A DNA stretch of 64,000 bases from assembly GCF_988242995.1 (NCBI RefSeq), contig NZ_OZ547043.1; one strand, written 5' to 3'. Positions within the stretch are counted from its first letter, which is position 1. Each line of letters begins with the position of its first letter. Made by a program: the position numbers and the translations under genes. This document shows, one piece after another, positions 9,235-9,363 of this stretch. The notes under the pieces are model-generated. The model was not told the origin of the DNA and did no database searches. It saw only the letters and a list, made by a program, of their open reading frames with translations.

Positions 9235-9363
9235 ATGAAGATGATGAATAGCTGCAAACTCATTCACGAAGAATTTCTCTTGCAGAGGTGGATTATGGTT
9301 ACAGAAGATGATGGGAGGTACGTTGTCCCCATCATCGCAGACGATGGGGAATTCAGCAGATAA
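9235..9363 (+). CDS. Hypothetical 42-codon small ORF inside the islet, divergent from the effector-like gene (speculative)
   Basis: ATG...TAA frame MKMMNSCKLIHEEFLLQRWIMVTEDDGRYVVPIIADDGEFSR; an internal ATG at 9295 has a better SD (agagg, 6-nt spacing); below the ORF-track size cut-off; no recognised homology. Confidence 0.15.
   Translation: MKMMNSCKLIHEEFLLQRWIMVTEDDGRYVVPIIADDGEFSR

Follow-up and report, generated by a model that had tools for sequence, protein, structure and literature searches.

A 42-codon open reading frame beside espY3 in O-island 26 of Escherichia coli is probably a chance frame in a noncoding spacer

The 42-codon open reading frame (ORF) located between yajO and espY3 in O-island 26 of Escherichia coli is most easily explained as a chance frame in a noncoding spacer, without a functional peptide, a reading to which we give a probability of roughly 0.8. 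A function is supported neither by its evolution nor by homology or transcription data. It is also not new, having already been catalogued in 2017 as the weak RIBOseq candidate XECs043. Observations that count against the chance reading include the facts that a published RIBOseq filter was passed in one condition, that a classifier labeled the candidate as "real," and that a fair SD sequence precedes the internal ATG at 9295. The analysis was performed on a stretch of 64,000 nt of contig NZ_OZ547043.1 (RefSeq assembly GCF_988242995.1), hereafter called the window, and positions refer to it unless another genome is named (Table 1).

TABLE 1. Position of the ORF and of the surrounding features in the window
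Feature	Position	Strand	Remarks
O-island 26 (islet)	7402..9382		About 1.98 kb; replaces the pgpA-yajO spacer of K-12
espY3	7581..9152	-	T3SS effector pentapeptide-repeat protein; sole gene of the islet; 523 codons
yajO-espY3 spacer	9153..9382		230 nt; right end of O-island 26
XECs043, same frame from an upstream ATT	9199..9363	+	54 aa; Sakai 503155-503316; supplements of PMC5597208
42-codon ORF, ATG to TAA	9235..9363	+	Antisense to the direction of yajO-espY3 transcription
Internal 22-codon ORF (core)	9295..9363	+	AGAGG at 9284-9288, 6 nt before its ATG
Stem-loop	9326..9350	-	11-bp G+C-rich stem, 3-nt loop; starts 32 nt past the yajO stop
-10-like TAAAAT (9361-9366) and TSS (9372)	9361..9372	+	The hexamer includes the TAA of the ORF
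yajO	9383..10357	-	Aldo/keto reductase; core gene flanking the islet

The gene order around the ORF, with nusB-thiL-pgpA on one side of the islet and yajO-dxs-ispA on the other, is that of E. coli. At the islet site, K-12 has just 53 nt, including a REP element, between pgpA and yajO, and the comparison puts the junctions at the stop codons of these two genes, with the ORF wholly inside the islet, where the sequence-only reading had placed it. O-island 26 has been reported to span 1,983 bp and to contain a single ORF, espY3 (PMC8565820), and its G+C content in the window is 34%. The neighbor that had been called effector-like is indeed espY3, whose RefSeq name is "T3SS effector pentapeptide repeat protein EspY3" in O157:H7 and "pentapeptide repeat-containing protein" outside O157:H7. 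The domains found in it were pentapeptide repeats (Pfam), the nearest NCBIfam model being PipB2, far under its cut-off; the function of EspY3 is treated elsewhere (PMC6313403). Because both yajO and espY3 are encoded on the minus strand, the spacer is downstream from the former and upstream of the latter, and the ORF is antisense. The spacer presumably holds the promoter and the 5' UTR of espY3, as well as the 3' end of yajO. A scan of positions 7300-9700 against Rfam with a permissive threshold gave one chance-level match elsewhere in the islet and nothing else. At the left end of the islet, between the convergent stop codons of pgpA and espY3, there is a perfect 10-bp palindrome (AGTGCCCCAA-TT-TTGGGGCACT, 7464-7485), which looks like a bidirectional terminator.

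The description of the frame made from the letters alone was largely reproduced. The translation of 42 residues, from the ATG at 9235 to the TAA at 9361-9363, was recovered exactly, and the ORF and the effector gene point away from each other, with the start of the ORF 82 nt upstream of that of espY3 (ATG at 9152, minus strand). The distance between its end and the yajO stop codon (9383-9385), earlier given as 20 nt, is 19 nt. The SD sequence of the first ATG is poor, as had been noticed, with an AAGGG that directly abuts the start codon, and the AGAGG of the internal ATG is present with the 6-nt gap described. In a consensus scan of positions 9000-9500, no promoter or terminator was found. 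A leader peptide or uORF attenuator was ruled out because the ORF is on the plus strand, opposite to espY3 and yajO, and a type I toxin-like peptide was ruled out from the sequence, the product being acidic and hydrophilic and devoid of a hydrophobic helix. The single-sequence AlphaFold2 model of the peptide had a mean pLDDT of 49.9 and a pTM of 0.17; so low a value is uninformative, though consistent with the absence of a folded domain. A fold search with this model was dropped, as the model was too poor.

The spacer was present in 934 of the 5,426 complete E. coli genomes (448 genomes have it with an identity of at least 99% to the window), in single copy and always in the chromosome. The allele of the window was found with 100% identity in 118UI (human urine), EP91A (pig), and AGR6137 (water), so that the spacer beside what is known as an "EHEC" effector gene is widespread well beyond O157:H7. 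No paralogous spacer DNA was detected in E. coli by distant blastn, each genome having one place for it. Among the matches listed, no RefSeq feature was found under the spacer, and the ORF is thus unannotated in RefSeq/PGAP, as had been stated. This does not extend to a few GenBank assemblies, in which it appears as a "hypothetical protein," nor to the literature, where it was published as XECs043. In a collection of 5.8 billion proteins, the peptide formed nine clusters, all from E. coli and with at least 90% identity, a few members of which bear the name "hypothetical protein."

Homology searches gave no indication of a wider family. There was no Pfam or NCBIfam match to the peptide, and an exhaustive HMMER search of 1.84 billion representative proteins, in which the query was the whole open frame of 59 aa, returned no homologues outside the islet but the family itself alone, with one true relative (P0010, 70% identity). 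Other matches (P0011-P0014, E 1e-7 to 5e-4) were discarded; they consist of a motif of 24-26 residues that recurs 3-8 times within very long repeat proteins, and their scores are inflated because of the number of repeats. By tblastn, the peptide had no match in phages, and the plasmid collection gave nothing apart from this locus in two entries of about 4.9 Mb. These records (NZ_CP141089.1 and NZ_CP134663.1; H71 and H72) are evidently chromosomes filed as plasmids. Among the GTDB species-representative genomes, the search for espY3 relatives retrieved just an unrelated pentapeptide protein and E. coli-derived contigs in a Collinsella metagenome-assembled genome, which left no other species for comparison. 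The Collinsella sp. contigs (JAIJJM01; L011 and L012) are short and 99-100% identical to E. coli espY3, the bin being contaminated.

An ORF of this length is no more than chance would give, since an ATG ORF of 42 codons or more appeared in 33% of the dinucleotide shuffles of the spacer. The window has 164 ATG ORFs of 42-100 codons. Selection was evaluated with 15 distinct alleles, obtained from complete genomes and metagenome contigs. The ORF showed 12 nonsynonymous and five synonymous changes, with 11.7 nonsynonymous changes expected at random, and the changes were distributed over the three codon positions as 5:6:6. In the internal 22-codon core, the ratio was 7:1 (stop loss counted as nonsynonymous). 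In the control gene yajO, taken from the same loci, there were eight nonsynonymous and 103 synonymous changes, and 100 of the 111 were at third positions, which indicates that the method is able to detect constraint. A further comparison was made with the divergent allele L030 (assembly GCA_012648035.1), whose identity to the window is 88% in the spacer, 94% in yajO, and 84% in espY3. Its 16 nucleotide differences in the ORF are all located in nt 1-91 and amount to 15 nonsynonymous changes and one synonymous change. The comparison of synonymous and nonsynonymous changes, suggested by the sequence-only reading as a check on the frame, therefore gave a neutral pattern, in which no purifying selection was seen. 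Across E. coli, espY3 itself has 106 nonsynonymous and 41 synonymous changes and many indels, so the whole islet is weakly constrained, and the power of this kind of test against a young gene is limited. Most alleles, among them L030 with its 12% divergence in the spacer, keep the frame open; we estimate that roughly half of the open frames of such a kind would be kept by chance.

Alleles in which the frame is disrupted were also observed. The frame is shifted by an additional G after codon 15 in 30 complete genomes, whose sources are soil, dog, human, and chicken; this insertion is upstream of the ATG at 9295 and leaves the 22-codon core unaffected. Strain 18KM2445, the sole genome with this allele that was examined for espY3, has an espY3 annotated as intact. 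The stop codon is lost by a change from TAA to TTA in at least five complete genomes, and a second form of stop loss is represented by P0001. In strain 88COLEC (L006 2677-4003), an element of the ISVsa5/IS10 family is inserted within the ORF, exactly in the conserved hairpin described below, and a segment of about 11 nt of spacer sequence (query positions 166-176) aligns on both sides of it. An allele with an additional C, seen in the metagenome contig L026, was left uncounted, as it occurs in no complete genome and may be an assembly error. Disruption of the frame in comparable islets, which had been proposed as evidence against a functional frame, is thus found in three forms: frameshift, stop loss, and IS insertion.

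The part of the ORF sequence that does appear constrained would belong to the opposite strand, where a stem-loop (UCCCCAUCGUC-UGC-GAUGAUGGGGA, minus strand) follows the yajO stop codon. It has a predicted free energy (dG) of -17.9 kcal/mol and a z of -4.8, and it overlaps codons 31-39 of the ORF (VPIIADDGE). The stem-loop is invariant in a set of nine alleles chosen without regard to it (P = 0.008 when the 38 variable sites are placed at random), and the longest invariant run of this set, 9326-9353, coincides with it. It is also unchanged in L030. The block 9280-9290, around the SD sequence of the ATG at 9295, is likewise invariant in the nine-allele set. An RNA or DNA element on the opposite strand thus accounts for the conserved last third of the "peptide." The stem-loop was rejected as a Rho-independent terminator because its tail, ACAACGUACC, has no U tract and the terminator scan was negative, and as a REP element because its sequence is unrelated to REP and occurs in one copy per genome (distant blastn). 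It is probably where the yajO mRNA ends, acting either as a stabilizer or as a partial terminator.

The candidate XECs043 was reported by Hücker et al. (2017, PLoS One 12:e0184119) as a frame of 162 nt and 54 aa on the plus strand of the Sakai genome (503155-503316), with the peptide MTWRNYQKSLKGMKTMNSCKLIHEEFLLQRWIMVTEGDGRYVVPIIADDGEFSR (PMC5597208). These coordinates correspond to 9199-9360 of the window. XECs043 and the ORF have the same locus, strand, and frame, and the published peptide includes the whole O157 allele; the difference is in the start, which for XECs043 is a rare ATT 12 codons upstream of the ATG, because the authors took the farthest-upstream start, rare codons included (PMC5597208). 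The allele of the window departs from it in two residues (T3M and G25D). The published signals are low. In LB, the RPKM values were 2.6 for the transcriptome and 5.1 for the translatome, with a coverage of 0.35; in the BHI control, they were 16.1 and 19.8, with a coverage of 0.59 and an RCV of 1.54; and in BHI stress, they were 1.8 and 0.3, with a coverage of 0.08 (PMC5597208). The required coverage of at least 0.5 was thus reached in one of the three conditions, the BHI control, with about 40 footprint reads that carry no frame information (PMC5597208). The candidate was labeled "real" by a machine-learning classifier, and a promoter was predicted 202 bp upstream, within espY3 (PMC5597208). 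The support given in the paper consists of RNAseq and RIBOseq counts and predictions, without validation and without a kA/kS value, and in its S3 Table no counterpart from Neuhaus et al. 2016 (EDL933) is given for XECs043, unlike for other candidates (PMC5597208).

Transcription start sites (TSSs) in this region are available from Cappable-seq of EDL933, performed in four media and two growth phases, that is, in eight non-inducing conditions (PMC10469882). Mapping of TSSs had been put forward as a way to check the ORF, and in these published data no start was found in front of it (PMC10469882). Six plus-strand TSSs are antisense within espY3 (EDL933 501866/7, 502304, 502363/6, 502533, and 502740; PMC10469882), which map to about 7910-8784 of the window. 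Between EDL933 502740 and 503328 there is no plus-strand TSS, and hence none in the 82 nt that precede the ORF (PMC10469882); the nearest one upstream is 451 nt before the ORF, within espY3. The TSS at EDL933 503328, called in all eight conditions (PMC10469882), corresponds to position 9372 of the window, 9 nt past the stop codon of the ORF and antisense to the 3' end of yajO. From the sequence, the TAAAAT at 9361-9366 is a plausible -10 element for this TSS. On the minus strand, no TSS was detected in the spacer in the eight non-inducing conditions, and thus no start specific to espY3 (PMC10469882).

If the ORF is a chance frame, the plus-strand RNA that covers it would most likely come from the antisense starts within the AT-rich espY3, and ribosomes may occasionally load on this RNA, possibly at the ATG at 9295, with its fair SD sequence. 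Such occasional loading would explain the weak RIBOseq signal behind the listing of XECs043. The same signal could be produced by a real, evolutionarily young small-protein gene of the espY3 islet, either XECs043 itself or the 22-aa core, translated at a low level. This would agree with the RIBOseq thresholds passed in the BHI control (RCV 1.54, coverage 0.59), the classification as "real," the SD-like AGAGG 6 nt ahead of the ATG at 9295, the frame remaining open in the divergent L030, and the survival of the 22-codon core in the 30 frameshifted genomes. However, the substitution pattern is neutral overall (12:5), the ratio is 7:1 in the core and 15:1 against L030, and the stop-loss and IS alleles strike the core too. 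In addition, no TSS lies in front of the frame, the read counts are very low, no counterpart in Neuhaus et al. 2016 is given, the conserved 3' third is accounted for by the hairpin of the other strand, and the peptide has neither homologues nor a confident fold. We consider such a gene unlikely. We also consider it distinctly unlikely that a very young proto-gene specific to the islet has emerged here, comprising the frame or the 22-codon core behind the SD sequence at 9284-9288, with low-level translation from antisense RNA in carriers of the espY3 islet and an origin that lies partly in the reading of a palindrome serving the opposite strand.

A role in cis would make the sequence of the peptide irrelevant, as translation on the antisense RNA would modulate espY3 or yajO by stabilizing the transcript or by opening the hairpin. 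A function independent of sequence would fit the neutral substitutions, weak footprints do exist, and there are antisense TSSs in espY3 upstream of the ORF, together with the constitutive plus-strand TSS at 9372. Nevertheless, the frameshift, stop-loss, and IS alleles shift the end of translation, the level of plus-strand RNA is very low (RPKM 2.6-16 in LB and the BHI control), nothing links its expression to that of espY3 or yajO, and AT-rich acquired DNA commonly shows antisense RNA together with chance ORFs, which makes this role very unlikely in our view. The origin of the ORF as a remnant of a longer gene, from the DNA that delivered the islet, would be suggested by a version of 68 aa (P0008), with a different, protein-like N terminus, present in one metagenome scaffold. 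In that scaffold (L015), AT-rich foreign DNA joins the E. coli spacer at AATCACGAAGAATTT, creating the 68-aa hybrid ORF. The terminal 177 nt of the scaffold (L015 1-177) are very AT-rich and unrelated to the rest, P0008 is known from a single contig of a single sample, and its N terminus matches no family; it was set aside as proof of a remnant, being probably the chimeric end of a scaffold. Moreover, HMMER with the 59-aa frame found nothing but its own family and the matches to the repeat-protein motif, and tblastn gave nothing in phages and, in the plasmid collection, just the two chromosome-sized records with this locus. A remnant is, in our opinion, extremely unlikely. From the three possibilities offered by the sequence-only reading, noise is thus the one favored; the gene remnant finds no support in a HMMER search that returned the frame's own family only, and the small regulatory peptide is made less likely by the neutral substitutions and by the lack of a mapped TSS in front of the ORF.

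If the reading as a chance frame holds, the ORF is useful mainly as a caution on candidate lists derived from RIBOseq, being one more example of an open frame in AT-rich acquired DNA that does not merit annotation as a gene, even with a few footprints. A modestly useful by-product is the conserved stem-loop of the spacer, which probably ends the yajO message. Further by-products are the absence of a mapped TSS specific to espY3 in the non-inducing conditions and the decay of espY3 in a fair share of the E. coli lineages. Premature stops were found in five of the 22 distinct espY3 alleles (L005, L007, L009, L020, and L026), and the gene was flagged as a pseudogene by PGAP in three of the nine complete genomes examined. 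Together with its almost neutral evolution, this suggests that the effector gene is decaying in many carriers.

The ORF resembles the class I T3SS effector chaperones of the CesT/SycE type in its position beside an effector gene and in the predicted acidity of its peptide. These chaperones have roughly 120-150 aa. With 42 aa, the ORF is far shorter, as the sequence-only reading had already pointed out, and it has neither a Pfam or NCBIfam family match nor a confident fold (pLDDT 49.9), so that it was discarded as a member of this class. The stem-loop, in turn, is comparable to the REP hairpin of K-12, which occupies the equivalent place past the yajO stop codon, on the sense strand, with -23.2 kcal/mol against the -17.9 kcal/mol of the islet hairpin; it differs from 3' stem-loops of the REP type in its unrelated sequence and its single copy, and the lack of a U tract sets it apart from canonical intrinsic terminators. 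In AT-rich acquired islands, spurious promoters are normally silenced by H-NS, and antisense RNA with chance ORFs is common. The region studied here resembles such pervasive antisense expression in its G+C content of 34% and its six antisense TSSs in espY3, and also in the location of the ORF downstream from these TSSs, with a weak RNA and footprint signal.
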